Below, piece by piece: positions 20,117 to 27,068 of a stretch of 64,000 nucleotides of DNA. Source of the DNA: an uncultured Nitrososphaerota archaeon (GTDB lineage: Archaea > Thermoproteota > Nitrososphaeria > Nitrososphaerales > Gagatemarchaeaceae); NCBI GenBank assembly GCA_963718895.1, contig CAVRAG010000008.1, positions 320,001 through 384,000 on the forward strand. The letters are read 5' to 3'. Each line of letters opens with the position of its first letter. Position 1 is the stretch's first letter. The notes under the pieces were generated by a model. It had not been told where the DNA came from, made no database searches, and saw nothing but the letters and a program-made list of their open reading frames with translations. Made by a program: the position numbers and the translations under genes.

Positions 20117-21274
20117 CTAGACAGGCTTCCCGGTCGCGTTTTTCACCTCCAGGACGAGGCTCTCGGCGCGAGTCAGCACCTCAGCTTGGCTGAAACCCCA
20201 ATCTTTCTCCGACTCGCTCCAAAGATTGTAGGGTATCACGAACTGGGCCGCGTTCTTCTGGTCAACCACATAGTGTGACGCCCTTCGGCCAAATGGACGG
20301 AGTATCTCGCGGAGGAACTCGAAGGCTTCCATGGTCGTTTCGATCGGGAAGGCCAGCTGAGCGAGGTAGTCCTTCCCTCTCATCTCGCTCCACAAGTACG
20401 GCGTCCGGTTCACCTTTCCAGTAACCTCGAGGAACTCCCTCTCGGCTATGTCTCTCACGACCACATCGACGACCAGGTACTTGTAACGCCGGAGCTCGAC
20501 CCTCTCAGCCTCATTGTTGTAGCCGATCCCGAGCCACCCTATCGAATAACCGGCGATGAGCTTGTTCCCCACGACGTGGGAGCGATGGTGCCAATCGAGA
20601 GTCTTGTAGTTCAGCTCAATCTTGTTCTTCGCCTGGATCGCCCTGTTTATCTCTGTCATGGGCCTGCTGGCATCGAGCTGGAGTTCCTTCAGGATGAGAA
20701 GGTCAATCTTGTCCAGCCGGGCCCCTGCGACGGGCTTGGGTTGCATCTCATCGTTGTCGAGCGGCAACGGATTCCGCCAGTCATAGTCCCATCTTGAGGC
20801 ATCAAAATCATAGTGATCAGCACGCATCGGAACTCTCCTGAACCAATCGAACTCGTACAGTTCTGCAGACTCGAAGAGACCCATCTCCTTGAGCTTCATG
20901 ATCAAGGACGAATATTCTGAGACGAACCCTCTGGGCACCGTCGCGTGGAGGACGTAATAGTCATCTGGGATCGCCCGCTCGAACGCGGCCGCGAAGCTGA
21001 GGTCGTTCATTTTAGAGAAGGTCTTCTGGATGTGCGGGAGAAACATCTCGGCTACGCGGACCCTCGCGGCGACTCGTCTCATGCCCAGCGCCCCCTCGTT
21101 GGGAACCGCCTGGACAGACATCCCCTCTCTGAGGATCTTCTCTTTGTACCAGTATCTGATGGTCTCCTTGTGAACCCCGGACATCCTCGCGACACGGTCT
21201 ATGTCCGGCCCTATCTTCATGATGAGCTTCACAACCTGGGCGATCTTTTCGGGACGCTTGACGCCAGCGTTCAC
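20117..21274 (-). CDS. 385-aa HTH regulator with duplicated Lrp/AsnC-like architecture
   Basis: N-terminal HTH (VARMSGVHKETIRYWY); second HTH region (DKIDLLILKELQLDA); paralog of 42106..43263. Confidence 0.7.
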   Translation of the reverse strand: MNAGVKRPEKIAQVVKLIMKIGPDIDRVARMSGVHKETIRYWYKEKILREGMSVQAVPNEGALGMRRVAARVRVAEMFLPHIQKTFSKMNDLSFAAAFERAIPDDYYVLHATVPRGFVSEYSSLIMKLKEMGLFESAELYEFDWFRRVPMRADHYDFDASRWDYDWRNPLPLDNDEMQPKPVAGARLDKIDLLILKELQLDASRPMTEINRAIQAKNKIELNYKTLDWHHRSHVVGNKLIAGYSIGWLGIGYNNEAERVELRRYKYLVVDVVVRDIAEREFLEVTGKVNRTPYLWSEMRGKDYLAQLAFPIETTMEAFEFLREILRPFGRRASHYVVDQKNAAQFVIPYNLWSESEKDWGFSQAEVLTRAESLVLEVKNATGKPV

Positions 21275-22311: not shown

Positions 22312-22506
22312 CCCAGGAATCCGGGGCTCGTCACATAAACGGTCACAATCGCCTGCTCGTTGGCATCTCGATGGACGTACTCCGCCCGGGAAATCATGAG
22401 CGGATGAGCGACAGGGAGGCTCGATCGTGCTGATCCTCGTTGGGGGCTAAATAGGCAGCGGAGATACCATCCCATGAACCCCACCAGAAGCAAGTCAAGC
22501 TGCATT

Positions 22507-22806
22507 ATGGTATTTCTGTTCGGGAAGCCCGCCTGGGAACTGGACCTCGAAGGCGAGGAAGTCGACGAGAGGATGGTACTGGACCTGTCGAAGCTCGGAG
22601 ACGAGCTCAGGGAGAGACTCCACCGCACGTCTCGACTGACGAAGACCCTGCTCGAGAACGGCTGGAGCGGGTCGGGCGGGCTCTACGACATCTCGTTCTA
22701 CAAAGACCTTGCGCCCGAGGACGCACGAAAGGAGCTGACCGCACTGGGAATCAGCCCCGACGAGGTGGACATCGAGGAAGACGATTGGTCTGACGACGAG
22801 GAATGA
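22507..22806 (+). CDS. Acidic hypothetical protein
   Basis: Host-like codon usage; MVFLFGKPAWELD... Confidence 0.65.
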   Translation: MVFLFGKPAWELDLEGEEVDERMVLDLSKLGDELRERLHRTSRLTKTLLENGWSGSGGLYDISFYKDLAPEDARKELTALGISPDEVDIEEDDWSDDEE

Positions 22807-22986
22807 GTCAGGGACTCGTACGGCGACAAGAAGAATACCATTTGAGAAGACGAATCCACTCGACATCGCGATTCAGGGGCCTCAGTATCCAAACTCAGCC
22901 TCAGGTTTGAGGACCGACGGAACCGGCAGGGAGCGAATGGAGCGAATTCGAGTGGCGGTTAAATATCCTAATCCTCTATTTGGAAG

Positions 22987-23203
22987 AGTGTCTCAAGCGC
23001 CGCGTGCACTCTCGATTGAAAGGTCGAGGGCAAGATAGGAAGACAAACCCTGACGAGGCCTAGGATTGGCGCGATGAAGCACACTTGGCCGCGGGACAGG
23101 TAAAGAGCGGGAAGGCGGTTATTCAAGTGCAGCTCAGGACCACCCGACCAAACGGCCGCTCAACGTGTCAGTTCGTCTCAGTCGAACGCATGCACAAGCG
23201 GCT
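22987..23203 (+). ncRNA. Candidate structured RNA / long 5' leader of the LAGLIDADG gene
   Basis: Starts about 22 bp after TTAAATA (22959-22965); nested stems, including a GAAA-tetraloop hairpin at 23009-23030; folded by eye only. Confidence 0.5.
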
Positions 23204-23230
23204 CACAGCGAATATAGGAAAGAACACAGT

Positions 23231-24592
23231 ATGTCCTCCGAAAGCAAGAAACAGAACGAAGGCTCTGAAGGTGATGGGGGTCACCGACAGGGCACACGCA
23301 AACGACACTTCCGAGGTCACTGGAACATGGAGAACACGAAGCCGTGGGTCGAGATGTTCGAGAAGCGGAGGATGTCAGCTCAGGCCATCGCAAAGGAAGT
23401 AGGCGCAGACCCAACCACCGTCAGCACTTGGCTGAAGAAGCAAGGCGCCAAGATCCACCAGGGGCTGCACCGCAAGGAGCGCCAGCCACCCAAGGTCTCG
23501 CCGGAACTCGCGAAGCTGCTCGCCAACGGCCCGGAGGAAGCGTTGAAGTTCCTGGACGAGCGCGTCTGGGGAATCGGCGCGTCACCGGGAGAGCTCGAGC
23601 AGCTGAGGAAGTTCTGCGAGTTCCTCAAGGTCCCTTTGAACGTGGGCAGGAACGAGACGGCGGACGAGGTTGACATCGACCGAGGCATGGTCAACGCTTG
23701 GACGGAAGGGACCAAACAGCCCTACCTGGTCAAAGCGGCGAACACAGCCCTGCAGACAGTCATCAGACCGGGACGGAAGCTGCTTCCACTGCACCTCGAC
23801 TCGGGAGGAAATGAACAGGGGCCGTGGATACAGGTTCCGACATCGATACAGGACTACAGTGACGTCGTCGATGTGACAGCGCAGCTTAGCCCCCTGGAGA
23901 GCACGTTTGAACGCGCCTCAGGGTTCAGGCTATCGAGACAACAGGTCGAAGACATGCGAAACGATCTCCTGGCATACCTCCTTGGCATACTGGCAGGAGA
24001 CGCAAGCAAGTCAGGGGGCAAACAGATTCGCTTCACCTCATCCAGCATAGACCTTCACCTCACCCTGAAACAACCAACGAACGAACGGCTCGGCGAGTTC
24101 GTCTGCATGTGCGCCAACAGCCTCAGCGTCGTCATGGACCGCAAACAGGACAAGCAACCGTCAGGCAGCACCCGGTTCGGCAGACATCCATCGGCGGCCT
24201 ACAGGTGGACTTCGGAACGTTCACCACTGATCGCCTGGATGTTCAACGTCGGGCTAGGGCTGCAATGGGACGAGTGCACCACACTCCACCCTCTCAGGAT
24301 GGACTGGATTCAAGGAACGCCACGTTCGTTCAGGATACGGTTCGTCCAAGGACTTGCCGACTCTGATGGAACCGTGAAGCCTTCAGAAGTCATAATCACG
24401 AGCGTTCCCAACGCAGACTTCCTCAGTAGGCTTCTGCAAGACCTCGGAATGACGACTGCTCACACAATCATGGAATACGGAAGGCCACTCCGCACAATGG
24501 TGAACCGCAAACAGTCAGCAACACTACCCATCTTCAAGGAGTTCGTCCGAAGCTACAGATACCTGAAGACCATGAACTACCTGAAGAACTAG
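23231..24592 (+). CDS. Free-standing LAGLIDADG-type endonuclease-like protein with N-terminal HTH motifs
   Basis: Two LAGLIDADG-like helices (AYLLGILAGDAS, FVQGLADSDGTV); HTHs AQAIAKEVGADPTTVSTWL and NETADEVDIDRGMVNAW; no intein splice motifs. Confidence 0.75.
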   Translation: MSSESKKQNEGSEGDGGHRQGTRKRHFRGHWNMENTKPWVEMFEKRRMSAQAIAKEVGADPTTVSTWLKKQGAKIHQGLHRKERQPPKVSPELAKLLANGPEEALKFLDERVWGIGASPGELEQLRKFCEFLKVPLNVGRNETADEVDIDRGMVNAWTEGTKQPYLVKAANTALQTVIRPGRKLLPLHLDSGGNEQGPWIQVPTSIQDYSDVVDVTAQLSPLESTFERASGFRLSRQQVEDMRNDLLAYLLGILAGDASKSGGKQIRFTSSSIDLHLTLKQPTNERLGEFVCMCANSLSVVMDRKQDKQPSGSTRFGRHPSAAYRWTSERSPLIAWMFNVGLGLQWDECTTLHPLRMDWIQGTPRSFRIRFVQGLADSDGTVKPSEVIITSVPNADFLSRLLQDLGMTTAHTIMEYGRPLRTMVNRKQSATLPIFKEFVRSYRYLKTMNYLKN

Positions 24593-24712
24593 AACCCCCT
24601 CCCCTCTTTTTTACTCTCATGTGGCTCTCGTGTATTTGTCGCGGCGTTTCGCGGCGTTAGTTGAAATCGGTGTTCGATGTCGGCGGTAACAGGCGAACCA
24701 GGCGTAACTGGA

Positions 24713-25039
24713 TTAGGTCGCCGCTCGAGGGAGAAGCTGCCGGAGACGACTGGTTTGGCTCAGCAGAACACTTGCTGCATTTCCGCTACTCATCCACTGG
24801 ATCCATCCAGGGCCTTCTTCCTGTGGGACGTACATGACTCCGGAGTGCAAGAACTCATAGGACGGCGAAATGAAGGTGGGAATGTGAGGCGGCGAAGCGG
24901 AAATCTACCCACACTAGGGATACGTCGAGGGCAGACTCCAAGGACCGAGCGCTTTCTGCGGAATAATCGGAGCGAGAAGGAAAAGCGCAACGGCAAGGAC
25001 GATGAGGCTGCTGAGAGGCAACCCGTGTGTGCGATTCAT
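24713..25039 (-). pseudogene. Degraded membrane/secreted protein gene with two in-frame TAG codons
   Basis: Hand translation MNRTHGLPLSSLIVLAVALFLLAPIIP...TYP*CG*ISASPPHIPTFISPSYEFLHSGVMYVP... Confidence 0.3.
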
Positions 25040-25115
25040 GATTAGCCTTCGATCTTCGTTTGATATGCGTGTTTGTCCAAACGGCTCCTATGACCCAGGG
25101 CGAATCTTGACATAG

Positions 25116-25730
25116 ATGACGCAGCTGCGAATTGAGTGGCGTTTATTACGCGCCGGCGGCTATCACATTGAGTCTAAGATGTTCACACCGCTGGACCTCT
25201 GCATTCAGACGGCGAGCGCTACGAACCACATTCTGAAAGAGATGTTGAAAGGAAGAAGGACATGGAGCTCGGTGACAGATTCCAGGGAGGACGAATCGAG
25301 CCTGTCTCTTATGGTCTCGGACAACACCCAGACCGCGTTCTGCAGGGTGGAGATACTCTCCCACAGGGTCGAAGGGCGAGGCAAGAAGCTATTCCTTGAA
25401 GCCATCATTCGAATGGACGTTCGGGAGGAGCCTCGACTCAATCTGAAGGATTTCGCTGTCGAGAGGACCATGAAGGAGATCTGGAGCTACTTTCCGGTGA
25501 TAACCATGGGCACCGAGTACGGAATCAAATTCAGCAAGGAATCAGGGCCGGAGCTCTCGACGAAGTCAGTCATGAACGTAGCAATAGTCGCGGTCTCGGA
25601 GGAGCTTAGCGTGAGAAAGCTTGGAGGCTTCGATTACGACCAGCTGGGCAGGACAATTGCGAATGGGATTGCGGTGATGAACGCAATCCACGATGTCGCT
25701 AAGCAGATCCCATCTTCGGAATGGAATTAG
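25116..25730 (+). CDS. Hypothetical protein with lower GC, convergent on tuf
   Basis: 204-aa ORF; start uncertain; ends 12 bp from the tuf stop. Confidence 0.6.
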   Translation: MTQLRIEWRLLRAGGYHIESKMFTPLDLCIQTASATNHILKEMLKGRRTWSSVTDSREDESSLSLMVSDNTQTAFCRVEILSHRVEGRGKKLFLEAIIRMDVREEPRLNLKDFAVERTMKEIWSYFPVITMGTEYGIKFSKESGPELSTKSVMNVAIVAVSEELSVRKLGGFDYDQLGRTIANGIAVMNAIHDVAKQIPSSEWN

Positions 25731-25742
25731 GGGAGAGGCAGC

Positions 25743-27068
25743 TTACGCCTTTGCGACTGCCTTCTCTACTTGGCCCTTGACGGTAACTTCGCGGACGATA
25801 CCCGCTGCCACTGTGGACCCCATGTCTCGGAGCGCAAATCTGCCCAATTCTGGGAATTCTTTGAAAGTTTCGAGTACTACTGGGCGCAAAGGTGTGATTT
25901 TTACAATAGCTGAGTCGCCGGTCTTGATGGTCTTGGGCTTCTCCTCGGTGGGCTGACCCGTCCTCGGGTCGATCTTGGCGATGATCTCGGTGATCGTCGC
26001 GGCGACCTGGGCTGTGTGGGCGTGCAGGACCGGCGTGTAGCCGGCCGCTATCGCCGTCGGGTGGAACACCACGATTATCTGCGCGAGGAACTCCTTGGCT
26101 ATGGTGGGCGGGTTGGCCGTCTCGCCGAGGACCGAACCCCTGTGGAAGTCGGTCTTGGCTACGCCCCTCAGGTTGAACCCGATGTTGTCCCCGGCCATCG
26201 CCTCCTGCATGGGGGTGTGGTGGGTCTCGATGGACTTGACCTCGGCCGGGAGGCCCTCCGGCATGATGACCACCGACTGGCCGACCTTGATCTTGCCGGT
26301 CTCCACCCGTCCCACCGGGACCGTGCCGACGCCCGTGATGGTGTAGACGTCCTGTATCGGGAGGCGGAGTGGCTTCTGGATTGGCTTCGGAGGCTCGGTG
26401 AACTCGTCGAGCGCCTGGAGGAGGGTCGGGCCCTTGTACCAGGGCATGTTCGTCGAGGCCTTGACCTCGTTCTCGCCGGTCCAGCCGGAGATGGGTATGA
26501 AGCGTATCTTCGAGACGTTGTAGCCAGAGGCCTTGAGGAGGTTCTCGACGTCCATCTTGGCGTCGTTGTACATCTTCTCGCTGTACTTCACCGTCTGGTC
26601 GTCCATCTTGTTTATCACGACGACGAGCTGGTTGACCCCGAGGGTCTTCAGGAGGAACGCGTGCTCCCTCGCCTGGCCGCCCGGCCCGAGAGCCGTGTCC
26701 TTCTCTCCGGTCTTGGCGGAGACGACGAGGACGGCCGCGTCTGCCTCGGAGGCGCCGGTGATCATGTTCTTGATGAAGTCTCGGTGCCCGGGAGCGTCGA
26801 TGAGCGTGTAGAAGTACTTCTGCGTCTCGAACTTCTGGAACGCGAGGTCGATGGTGACACCCCTCTCCCTCTCGTCCTTCAGCTGGTCGAGGACCCAGGC
26901 GTACTTGAAACTGTCACCGGCGCCGGTCTTCTCGGACTCGCGGGCGAACTCGTCTATCGTCCTCTGGTCGACCGCTCCGAGGTCAAATAGGAAGTGCCCC
27001 ATGCTGGTCGACTTCCCGTGGTCTACGTGACCGGTTACGATGAGGTTCAGGTGAGGTTTGTCTGCCAT
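25743..27068 (-). CDS. tuf: Translation elongation factor EF-1alpha
   Basis: GHVDHGKST, ERERGVTID, DAPGHRDF, NKMD, GRFALRDMG. Confidence 0.99.
   Translation of the reverse strand: MADKPHLNLIVTGHVDHGKSTSMGHFLFDLGAVDQRTIDEFARESEKTGAGDSFKYAWVLDQLKDERERGVTIDLAFQKFETQKYFYTLIDAPGHRDFIKNMITGASEADAAVLVVSAKTGEKDTALGPGGQAREHAFLLKTLGVNQLVVVINKMDDQTVKYSEKMYNDAKMDVENLLKASGYNVSKIRFIPISGWTGENEVKASTNMPWYKGPTLLQALDEFTEPPKPIQKPLRLPIQDVYTITGVGTVPVGRVETGKIKVGQSVVIMPEGLPAEVKSIETHHTPMQEAMAGDNIGFNLRGVAKTDFHRGSVLGETANPPTIAKEFLAQIIVVFHPTAIAAGYTPVLHAHTAQVAATITEIIAKIDPRTGQPTEEKPKTIKTGDSAIVKITPLRPVVLETFKEFPELGRFALRDMGSTVAAGIVREVTVKGQVEKAVAKA

Follow-up and report, generated by a model that had tools for sequence, protein, structure and literature searches.

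What brings a LAGLIDADG endonuclease gene to the 3′ end of tuf, the gene for archaeal elongation factor 1alpha, in an uncultured Nitrososphaerota archaeon of the family Gagatemarchaeaceae, and does the abrupt change in codon usage at that end of tuf belong to the same story? We examined these questions in a 64-kb stretch of DNA, here called the window, which corresponds to G000:C8:320001-384000, part of the metagenome-assembled genome (MAG) G000 (11 contigs, 3.13 Mb). A preliminary description of the window had proposed that an element borne by neither intron nor intein cuts native tuf and replaces its 3′ end with a synonymous, cleavage-resistant copy, and the features on which it built are all present where it had placed them. 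Our comparisons suggest, with a probability that we would put at roughly 0.6, that the locus holds a free-standing LAGLIDADG homing cassette at the tuf 3′ end, with a new associated RNA; the recoded end of tuf is probably outside the mechanism in general.

On the plus strand, the locus consists of a small open reading frame (ORF), orf110, a 424-nt spacer, an ORF combining a helix-turn-helix (HTH) region with LAGLIDADG motifs, and two further ORFs, orf122 and orf204; tuf lies convergent to them on the minus strand. We compared this arrangement with 23 genomes of the genus, given G labels, and with 83 nuclease loci (80 metagenomic, 3 on genome contigs), L labels denoting loci on metagenome or genome contigs. 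The 3′ end of tuf was located in 20 of the genus genomes, one of which holds a 41-nt fragment at a contig edge, and the remaining 19 could be judged.

The nuclease gene occupies positions 23231-24592 of the window on the plus strand when read from an ATG codon, encoding 453 amino acids, or 23165-24592 in its longest form, which starts at GTG. Its product matches the Pfam family LAGLIDADG_3 with 25.4 bits (cut-off 22.5), and matches to HTH_28 and HTH_23 are weak and below their cut-offs, in keeping with the HTH-LAGLIDADG gene first described. The two nuclease motifs read LAGDAS and LADSDG; G256 and D257 in motif 1 and D377, S378, and D379 in motif 2 are invariant in 23 homologs (46-69% identity), and we take D257 and D379 to be the metal-binding positions from their place in the motifs. 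An AlphaFold2 model (predicted local distance difference test 84.2, predicted template modeling score 0.76) has a helical N-terminus and a C-terminal double α-β-β-α-β-β-α domain. Searching the PDB with this model in Foldseek gave as best matches the endonuclease domain of PI-SceI (E 4e-7), the TliVMA intein, I-DmoI (target template modeling score ~0.6), I-SceI, and I-Tsp061I, with WhiA at rank 48; the helical/HTH region of ~230 residues at the N-terminus is additional. A sequence-profile search of the PDB returned only a weak HTH match (2lvs_A, E 0.0015). Sequence and model together predict a LAGLIDADG fold with its catalytic residues present, and suggest that the protein is an active nuclease. 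A protein search found 186 homologs, none informatively named, and a scan of genome contigs found six loci, three of them new. The ratio of non-synonymous to synonymous substitution rates (dN/dS) is 0.10-0.30 in the 25 closest homolog pairs listed, and the nuclease match is unbroken in 76 of the 83 loci and split into pieces in the other seven.

The nuclease is tightly linked to tuf. Where at least 400 nt of sequence follow the nuclease match, tuf lies convergent downstream in 54 of 59 loci, and it does so in 12 further loci with less than 400 nt of room (66 in total), the median distance between the ends of the nuclease and tuf matches being 89.5 nt. Three of the five loci without this linkage carry the most distant homologs (35-37% identity). 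At the spot behind tuf, the nuclease is the sole constant gene across the 66 loci. The window, in which 1.15 kb and two additional ORFs separate nuclease and tuf, represents an enlarged form of a typically compact layout.

Within the genus, the cassette is distributed sporadically. A nuclease copy adjoins tuf in 8 of the 19 genomes judged: four copies are intact in a single frame (G000, G001, G003, and G017), two are clearly decayed, and two are frameshifted. Decay takes the form of in-frame stops and a degenerate middle in G010, and of stops and a missing middle in G011. The frameshifted copies are those of G002 and G033; assembly mistakes may account for both, given that tuf too is frameshifted in G002 and G017. 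In the assemblies, tuf is split by a frameshift in one case (G017:C1:193989-195307) and by a frameshift and a TGA codon in the other (G002:C106:2940-4234); both splits most likely arose during assembly, and the case for a broken nuclease in those genomes is weaker for it. No nuclease copy adjoins tuf in 11 of the 19 genomes, among them G014, judged on a 1.2-kb flank only, and 12 genomes from other families of the order gave no nuclease match. Sporadic presence at one fixed site among relatives, together with decaying copies, is the homing hallmark that we looked for, and it is found here.

Comparison of occupied and unoccupied sites indicates where the cassette enters. A gene of ~1350 codons, which we call F3, directly follows tuf in the cassette-free genomes G006, G008, G009, G012, and G018, and the cassette lies between tuf and F3 in G017 and in loci L075, L099, L100, L113, and L127. 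Elsewhere the far-side gene is another one, of the glyoxalase family in G000, G001, and G010 and others in clade A, and tuf is always the near neighbor. DNA homology between genus genomes ends 6-14 nt past the tuf stop codon. When G017 is compared with six cassette-free relatives, homology extends to +9 to +27 past the tuf stop codon and resumes 2.08 kb on, at -56 to -69 of tuf, a pattern that points to a 2.1-kb cassette with a copy of the last ~65 nt of tuf, and of a few bases beyond, on either side. The distal copy spans ~53-75 nt, is 92-94% identical, and has lost the stop codon, reading AAC CAG CAG where the gene reads AAG CAG TAG.

Such a displaced tuf end was found in G017 alone. The window holds none, as had already been noted, and a tblastn search with the tuf tail found none in the whole 11-contig assembly either. 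A blastn-short search with 16 genus tails against masked contexts recovered a copy in G017 only, and the 66 loci that hold the tuf end yielded nothing credible.

Upstream of the nuclease, the preliminary description had placed a promoter and a structured leader, and comparison supports both. A promoter-like motif resembling a transcription factor B recognition element (BRE) and TATA box, GGCGG-TTAAATAT, can be read at 22954-22966 on the plus strand, ~30 nt before the start of a conserved structured leader RNA (22985-23139, plus strand). Of 12 copies of the RNA, 8 have a GGCG-N-TTAAATA motif ~30 nt upstream and two more have near variants; by our own count, TTAAAT occupies the same alignment position in 8 of the 12 upstream regions, near variants do so in two, and it is absent from two. 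The RNA element measures 130-155 nt, and its nucleotide identity stays at 72-89% even between loci whose nucleases share only 46-55%. It was detected with nhmmer in 19 of the 83 loci, 12 of them among the 57 loci that have 330 nt or more of upstream room, and a covariance model (R1; 146.5 bits at the window copy) returned the same 19. The covariance model also finds the RNA in G003, G002, G010, and G033, and does not find it in G001, G017, G011, or genomes without a tuf-linked nuclease. Run with filters off on 11 RNA-less loci, it detected nothing significant; weak matches at the right place appeared in L075 (E 0.64) and L099 (E 4.6).

The proposed structure contains helices P1 and P2 together with P3 and P4, which cross P1 in a pseudoknot-like manner. 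Over 19 sequences, this four-helix model pairs 93.9% of cells, against 32-41% when the partners are slid, and compensatory change occurs in 9 of 20 pairs, a count that 2 of 500 shuffles reach; these figures come from an alignment fitted to P2-P4, from helices drawn from the same sequences, and from few independent lineages. RNAalifold had paired columns 13-18 with 113-119; we replaced this helix by P1 (columns 13-17 with 95-99), because variants containing A break the RNAalifold pairing and keep P1. Folded as a single sequence, the leader is not exceptional on either strand (z 0.23 and 0.01), so support for the structure comes entirely from comparison. A search of 22800-23300 against Rfam at E up to 10 gave two chance-level matches (14 bits versus 36 and 53), and Rfam 15 at the gathering score gave no match across the 64-kb window. 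Between the RNA and the nuclease start codon lies a hairpin-like inverted repeat, GTTCG-N7-CGAAC (23171-23187, plus strand), which is kept in the closest loci (G000, L068, L072, and L070), has variants in L066 and L064, and might serve as an expression platform or as a site of processing. In RNA run X7, a 286-nt contig matches 23011-23060 and then continues as the leader of a relative, and a contig of RNA run X9 lies within the nuclease ORF; we did not count either as proof of transcription, because RNA libraries can contain DNA. On these comparisons, the leader RNA is real and conserved, and our best guess is that it acts in cis, controlling or stabilizing the nuclease mRNA.

The same RNA stands upstream of three LAGLIDADG lineages, two of which share ~25% protein identity, the third being recognizable by the LAGLIDADG motif only. 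Ahead of a paralog at a retropepsin/HerA locus it scores 34.6 bits in G000 and 24.5 bits in G015. A divergent copy (L023:720-873; L055:5149-5306) lies ~500 nt upstream of a paralog, and there a conserved retropepsin-like ORF on the opposite strand stands between the two; at that locus the RNA is hardly a simple 5′ untranslated region. A strong copy (86.5 bits; L147:3170-3319, on contig C99 of G003) precedes the third LAGLIDADG_3 lineage, an ORF of 378 codons (L147:3455-4591) that goes undetected with the tuf-linked protein as query and is convergent with a small Cys-rich, perhaps ferredoxin-like, ORF.

A homing cassette of this build could work as follows. The BRE/TATA promoter (22954-22966) would drive the ~150-nt pseudoknot-like leader RNA and the ORF of a monomeric two-motif nuclease. 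This enzyme would recognize and cut either the conserved tuf end or the junction immediately past its stop codon in chromosomes that lack the cassette, and repair off a cassette-bearing chromosome would copy the cassette in, sometimes with the adjoining tuf end. Some cassette versions would carry orf110 and orf204 along, and in some lineages the nuclease gene would later drift, decay, and disappear. The target, the cleavage, the homing, and any role of the RNA are all predicted here from sequence. What endures of the preliminary proposal is free-standing homing, for which the tight linkage to tuf (54 of 59 loci), the patchiness, the decay, the duplication in G017, the retained catalytic residues, and purifying selection on the ORF argue; its other half, the recoded resistant tail, does not fare as well.

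The codon-usage break itself is as sharp as first described. tuf (25743-27068, minus strand, as are all positions within it) encodes 441 amino acids with all four Pfam EF-Tu domains. Codons 1-385 (25914-27068) follow normal host usage, with a G+C content at third codon positions (GC3) of 0.91; exactly at codon 386 (window position 25913), GC3 falls, to 0.50 over codons 386-441. Within this tail, codons 386-411 (25836-25913) form a synonymous tract of A/T-ending codons (AT3 tract) with a GC3 of 0.31, and codons 412-441 with the stop codon (25743-25835) are moderately low at 0.67. Relative to G010, the nearest GC3-rich relative, a hand count over the codon alignment gives 16 differences in the 78 nt of the tract, all of them synonymous and 15 of them with G/C in G010 and A/T in G000. 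The last 100 tuf residues are identical in G000 and G001, and differ from those of G010 by one residue. Genome-wide, the tail drop of 0.41 ranks 11-12 among 1415 ORFs of at least 200 codons with a GC3 of at least 0.75; the 11 other top-ranked ORFs listed have Arg/Gly/Pro-rich ends, which on our reading resemble out-of-frame overruns into the next gene. The same tract begins at the same codon in G001 and in metagenome contig L069 (95% identical to G000), so the junction at 25913 is no assembly chimera peculiar to this MAG, a danger to which the preliminary description had pointed. None of the short Logan contigs from four public read runs spans 25913, and uncovered parts carry no meaning.

Could this tail be a cleavage-resistant replacement, carried by the element and co-converted with the nuclease? 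Several features of the locus favor such a model. Codon usage changes sharply, and does so at the cassette-facing end of tuf; 15 of the 16 synonymous differences from G010 replace G/C by A/T. Synonymous changes also separate the in-frame tuf end of G017 from its displaced copy, three of them A/T-ending in the in-frame copy. Among the closest relatives, G000 and G001, whose nucleases are intact, have the tract, and G010, G011, and G002, with decayed or frameshifted copies, do not.

The wider comparison, however, dissociates the tract from the nuclease. At codons 386-411, the median GC3 drop is 0.07 in 59 nuclease-linked tuf genes versus 0.04 in 9 unlinked ones, and only 5 of the 59 linked genes reach a drop of at least 0.25; the largest values are 0.62 in G000, 0.47 in G001 and L069, and 0.28 in L125 and L139, with 0.27 in G007. 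Over the last ~30 codons, the medians are 0.23 (59 linked) and 0.18 (9 nuclease-free), and low GC3 at codons 412-441 is typical of most of the genus whether the nuclease is present or not. G003, G017, and nearly all of the 52 scored metagenome tuf genes have the nuclease and lack the tract, whereas G007 has no nuclease adjoining tuf and a similar tract (GC3 0.58, 90% identical to G000), which speaks against a tail brought in by the element. Nor does the tract travel with the cassette: by the tract, G000 belongs with G001, and by its type of cassette (leader RNA, orf204, and the closer nuclease) it belongs with G003, G002, and G010, whose nucleases are the closest to it in the genus (62-69% identity). 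The GC3 of the tail (0.50; tract 0.31) is below that of the cassette genes (0.70-0.78), so the tail is not simply of cassette composition.

In the tuf body tree, G010 falls inside the G000/G001/G007 group with weak support (72), and an approximately unbiased (AU) test on the tuf body does not reject a clade of G000, G001, and G007 (p 0.087), so that a single old event in their common ancestor followed by vertical descent suffices. Transfer of the tail by recombination was considered and set aside, the tuf body tree and the AU test giving no evidence of it. On present evidence, comparison makes the strong AT3 tract a feature of the G000/G001/G007 clade and not a general part of the element. We regard it as doubtful that an old invasion left the tract behind as a scar or as a resistance allele, and the full model of an element-borne resistant replacement seems to us unlikely. 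Resistance polymorphisms in the neighbor gene are documented in T4-type systems of phages; here, the AT3 tract is present and is unassociated with the nuclease across the 59 linked and 9 unlinked tuf genes. A sharp codon-usage break beside a mobile gene is, alone, no evidence of a resistance allele.

A second gene pair bears on the same point. An HTH-LAGLIDADG paralog of 415 amino acids (L022:1330-2577; G000:C7, about 425.4-426.7 kb) is convergent to the L7Ae-S28e operon and ends ~65 nt from the stop codon of rps28e (L022:2644-2859, minus strand); at least 12 genomes of the genus keep it at this spot, with 49-65% identity. In most paralog-bearing genomes, the final 16 rps28e codons have a GC3 of 0.19-0.44. 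Recoding of this tail as a parallel to the tuf tract was rejected, because low GC3 persists in genomes with no paralog found downstream (0.47 in G014 and 0.60 in G008), and the same genomes count against the resistant tail at tuf. One could go further and see in the RNA-bearing loci a family of RNA-partnered free-standing LAGLIDADG elements, gene-drive-like, aimed at tuf and perhaps at rps28e ends, with the RNA as functional partner; it could then control nuclease expression by sensing a ligand or a protein, or act as a maturase-like cofactor. Extrapolating this far from sequence, we consider such a family improbable.

The AT3 tract may instead be a signal at the nucleotide level, such as an oligo-T terminator of the convergent cassette transcripts or an internal promoter-like A/T box, or reflect codon selection that is relaxed toward the end of the gene, an explanation that we hold as tentative and rather short of probable. 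The sole T5 run on the plus strand of the tuf tail, at 25898, falls inside the tract, and with 13 nt between the end of orf204 and the stop codon of tuf, a transcript of orf204 must terminate inside tuf. Conservation of the tract equals or exceeds that of the tuf body (identity of G000 with G001 and G007 is 0.95 and 0.90 in the tract, 0.88 and 0.84 in the body), and milder low-GC3 ends are common in tuf and rps28e genus-wide. Nevertheless, G007 keeps the tract with no convergent neighbor, its next ORF being co-directional, other loci with a convergent nuclease ~90 nt off have no tract, and the role in ending transcripts is a prediction from the letters of the tail.

Whether the cassette homes at all must be weighed against its history. 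Trees of the nuclease and of the tuf body for 30 loci recover the same major clades, with supported local conflicts: L127 groups with L114 in the nuclease tree (support 100) and with L100 in the tuf tree (99), and G000 groups with G003 in the nuclease tree (79) and with G001 in the tuf tree (97). The pattern is compatible with an old association and occasional exchange among close relatives, and a resident gene alone could also produce it.

Several observations weigh against homing. The nuclease tree follows the tuf tree at clade level, and most copies are intact and under purifying selection, so the data also fit a gene of long residence that is inherited vertically and serves the host. The paralog convergent to rps28e, found in at least 12 genomes of the genus, has more the look of a stable resident. 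Of the four broken copies, two (G002 and G033) may be assembly errors, and the displaced tuf end was seen in G017 alone, a genome with a frameshifted tuf and 9% contamination. The AT3 tract, in turn, appears unassociated with the nuclease in the 59 linked and 9 unlinked tuf genes compared. The support for cleavage and homing is all comparative, and homing would require that DNA pass between cells of these archaea.

Much of this would be explained if the HTH-LAGLIDADG gene and its leader RNA formed a resident, domesticated unit that is inherited vertically, serves the host, for instance as a DNA- or RNA-binding regulator or a repair nuclease, has been lost or broken in places, and does not home. 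Besides the congruence of the trees at clade level, the dN/dS values of 0.10-0.30, the unbroken match in 76 of 83 loci, and the retention of the rps28e-linked paralog, WhiA, itself a LAGLIDADG and HTH regulator, appears among the structural matches (rank 48). We nonetheless judge domestication rather improbable. Both catalytic Asp residues are invariant, the gene is absent at tuf in 11 of 19 genus genomes, and it has no match in the 12 genomes from other families. The two tuf ends of G017 indicate insertion, beyond mere loss elsewhere, the far-side gene varies by clade while the cassette stays at tuf, and the trees conflict locally. The free-standing homing cassette thus remains our preferred reading of the locus.

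The other ORFs of the cassette are variable. orf110, a small ORF with an acidic tail (22474-22806, plus strand; GC3 0.78), has tblastn homologs of 45-67% identity; it lies upstream of the nuclease in G000, G001, G017, and loci L065, L069, L073, and L074, and between nuclease and tuf in L070, L071, L075, L076, and G033. Two atypical ORFs had been noted between the nuclease and tuf, and they differ in standing. orf204 (25116-25730, plus strand; GC3 0.70), a cargo gene convergent with tuf, has homologs in G003 (52-62% identity, broken across three frames) and L114 (32% over 180 amino acids), both in the corresponding position; orf122 (24677-25045, plus strand; GC3 0.55), between nuclease and orf204, is doubtful, with no homolog in the relatives or metagenome loci searched. 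None of the three has a match in Pfam, NCBIfam, or PHROG. G001 carries a different cargo between nuclease and tuf, a 128-amino acid ORF with CxxC pairs (MSGPTHGKSKYPCSRCGY...), and in G007 (L026) a co-directional ORF of 705 amino acids takes the cassette's place from +166 to +2283 past the tuf stop codon. Farther off in the window, an ORF of 385 amino acids (20117-21274, minus strand) has transposase-type and AsnC-type HTH matches that are weak and below cut-offs; G001 lacks it at the equivalent place, so it may be a second insertion near tuf.

As the preliminary description had stated for integrases, transposases, and terminal inverted repeats, no integrase, transposase, or recombinase family was detected in the cassette proteins or the three adjoining ORFs scanned (Pfam, NCBIfam, and PHROG), and no terminal repeats were found in the cassette. 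No tRNA was found anywhere in the window. Neither group I nor group II intron models gave a match; tuf is uninterrupted and the nuclease ORF is intergenic on the opposite strand, so the gene is not borne by an intron or intein. A search of viral contigs yielded no relatives of the cassette. That the spot behind tuf is an insertion hot spot at which the nuclease rides as a passenger of other machinery, as its varying content (the 705-amino acid ORF in G007, the Cys-rich ORF in G001, and orf204 here) and the nearby 385-amino acid HTH ORF missing from G001 might suggest, or that the junction at 25913 is chimeric, is very unlikely given these negative results for integrases, transposases, terminal repeats, and viral relatives, the constancy of the nuclease in 66 loci, and the recurrence of the junction in G001 and L069.

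If the cassette homes, chromosomes of widespread soil and peat archaea would carry drive-like elements aimed at an essential, conserved translation gene. Such elements would provide a natural marker of DNA exchange among these uncultured lineages and a source of novel nucleases with long targets, for which the genome context allows a guess at the target. In the leader RNA we have a new, well-conserved RNA motif of archaea that stays with one protein family over deep divergence, a lead regardless of the role of the nuclease. A literature search, incomplete in its coverage, found no tuf-linked or free-standing LAGLIDADG element and no such RNA in Thaumarchaeota, and the cassette is probably a homing element of a type so far undescribed in archaea.

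How does the cassette compare with known systems? WhiA shares the combination of a LAGLIDADG scaffold with an HTH; in WhiA the HTH is at the C-terminus, the catalytic residues are not known to be present, and the gene is generally described as kept throughout its lineage. Neither loss of these residues nor uniform conservation is seen here, where the Asp residues are invariant and the gene is patchy. The lariat-capping (GIR1) ribozyme sits immediately 5′ of the ORF for the homing endonuclease I-DirI and serves the nuclease mRNA, so both systems place a structured RNA directly 5′ of a homing endonuclease ORF; our leader RNA is much smaller, has no Rfam match at E up to 10, and gives no sign of catalysis. 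Integrase-type elements carry a recombinase gene, which was not detected in the cassette ORFs or the three adjoining ORFs scanned, and a far-border repeat of the gene end, of which the window shows none.

Archaeal LAGLIDADG genes have been described in rRNA introns and inteins, and free-standing endonucleases mainly in phages and organelles, in the literature searched; one such account places LAGLIDADG ORFs within group I introns of archaeal rRNA, including thaumarchaeal ones (PMC6125680). With the intron and intein enzymes (I-DmoI, I-Tsp061I, and the PI-SceI type), our nuclease shares the two-motif single-chain fold and the catalytic Asp residues; it differs in being intergenic, on the strand opposite to tuf, with ~230 N-terminal helical/HTH residues and no group I match. 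Phage T4-type free-standing endonucleases, MobE and the Seg proteins, are described as agents of intronless homing (PMC2790892, PMC2988022). There, too, the nuclease gene is intergenic, and its proposed mode of spread is cleavage of a conserved gene close by in genomes that lack it, with co-conversion of flanks; the phage enzymes are of the HNH or GIY-YIG type, whereas a LAGLIDADG enzyme in a cellular archaeal genome is at hand here. In a fungal mitochondrial genome, free-standing endonuclease ORFs are reported behind cob and atp6 (PMC6279837). Our cassette differs from this type in its setting on an archaeal chromosome at tuf, in its convergent nuclease with an N-terminal HTH, and in its conserved leader RNA, and the displaced gene-end copy is found in G017 only, with none in the window. 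The layout in G017 is nevertheless alike: in the fungal type (PMC6279837), a LAGLIDADG or GIY-YIG ORF lies downstream of a conserved gene, with a partial copy of the gene's C-terminal end beyond it.

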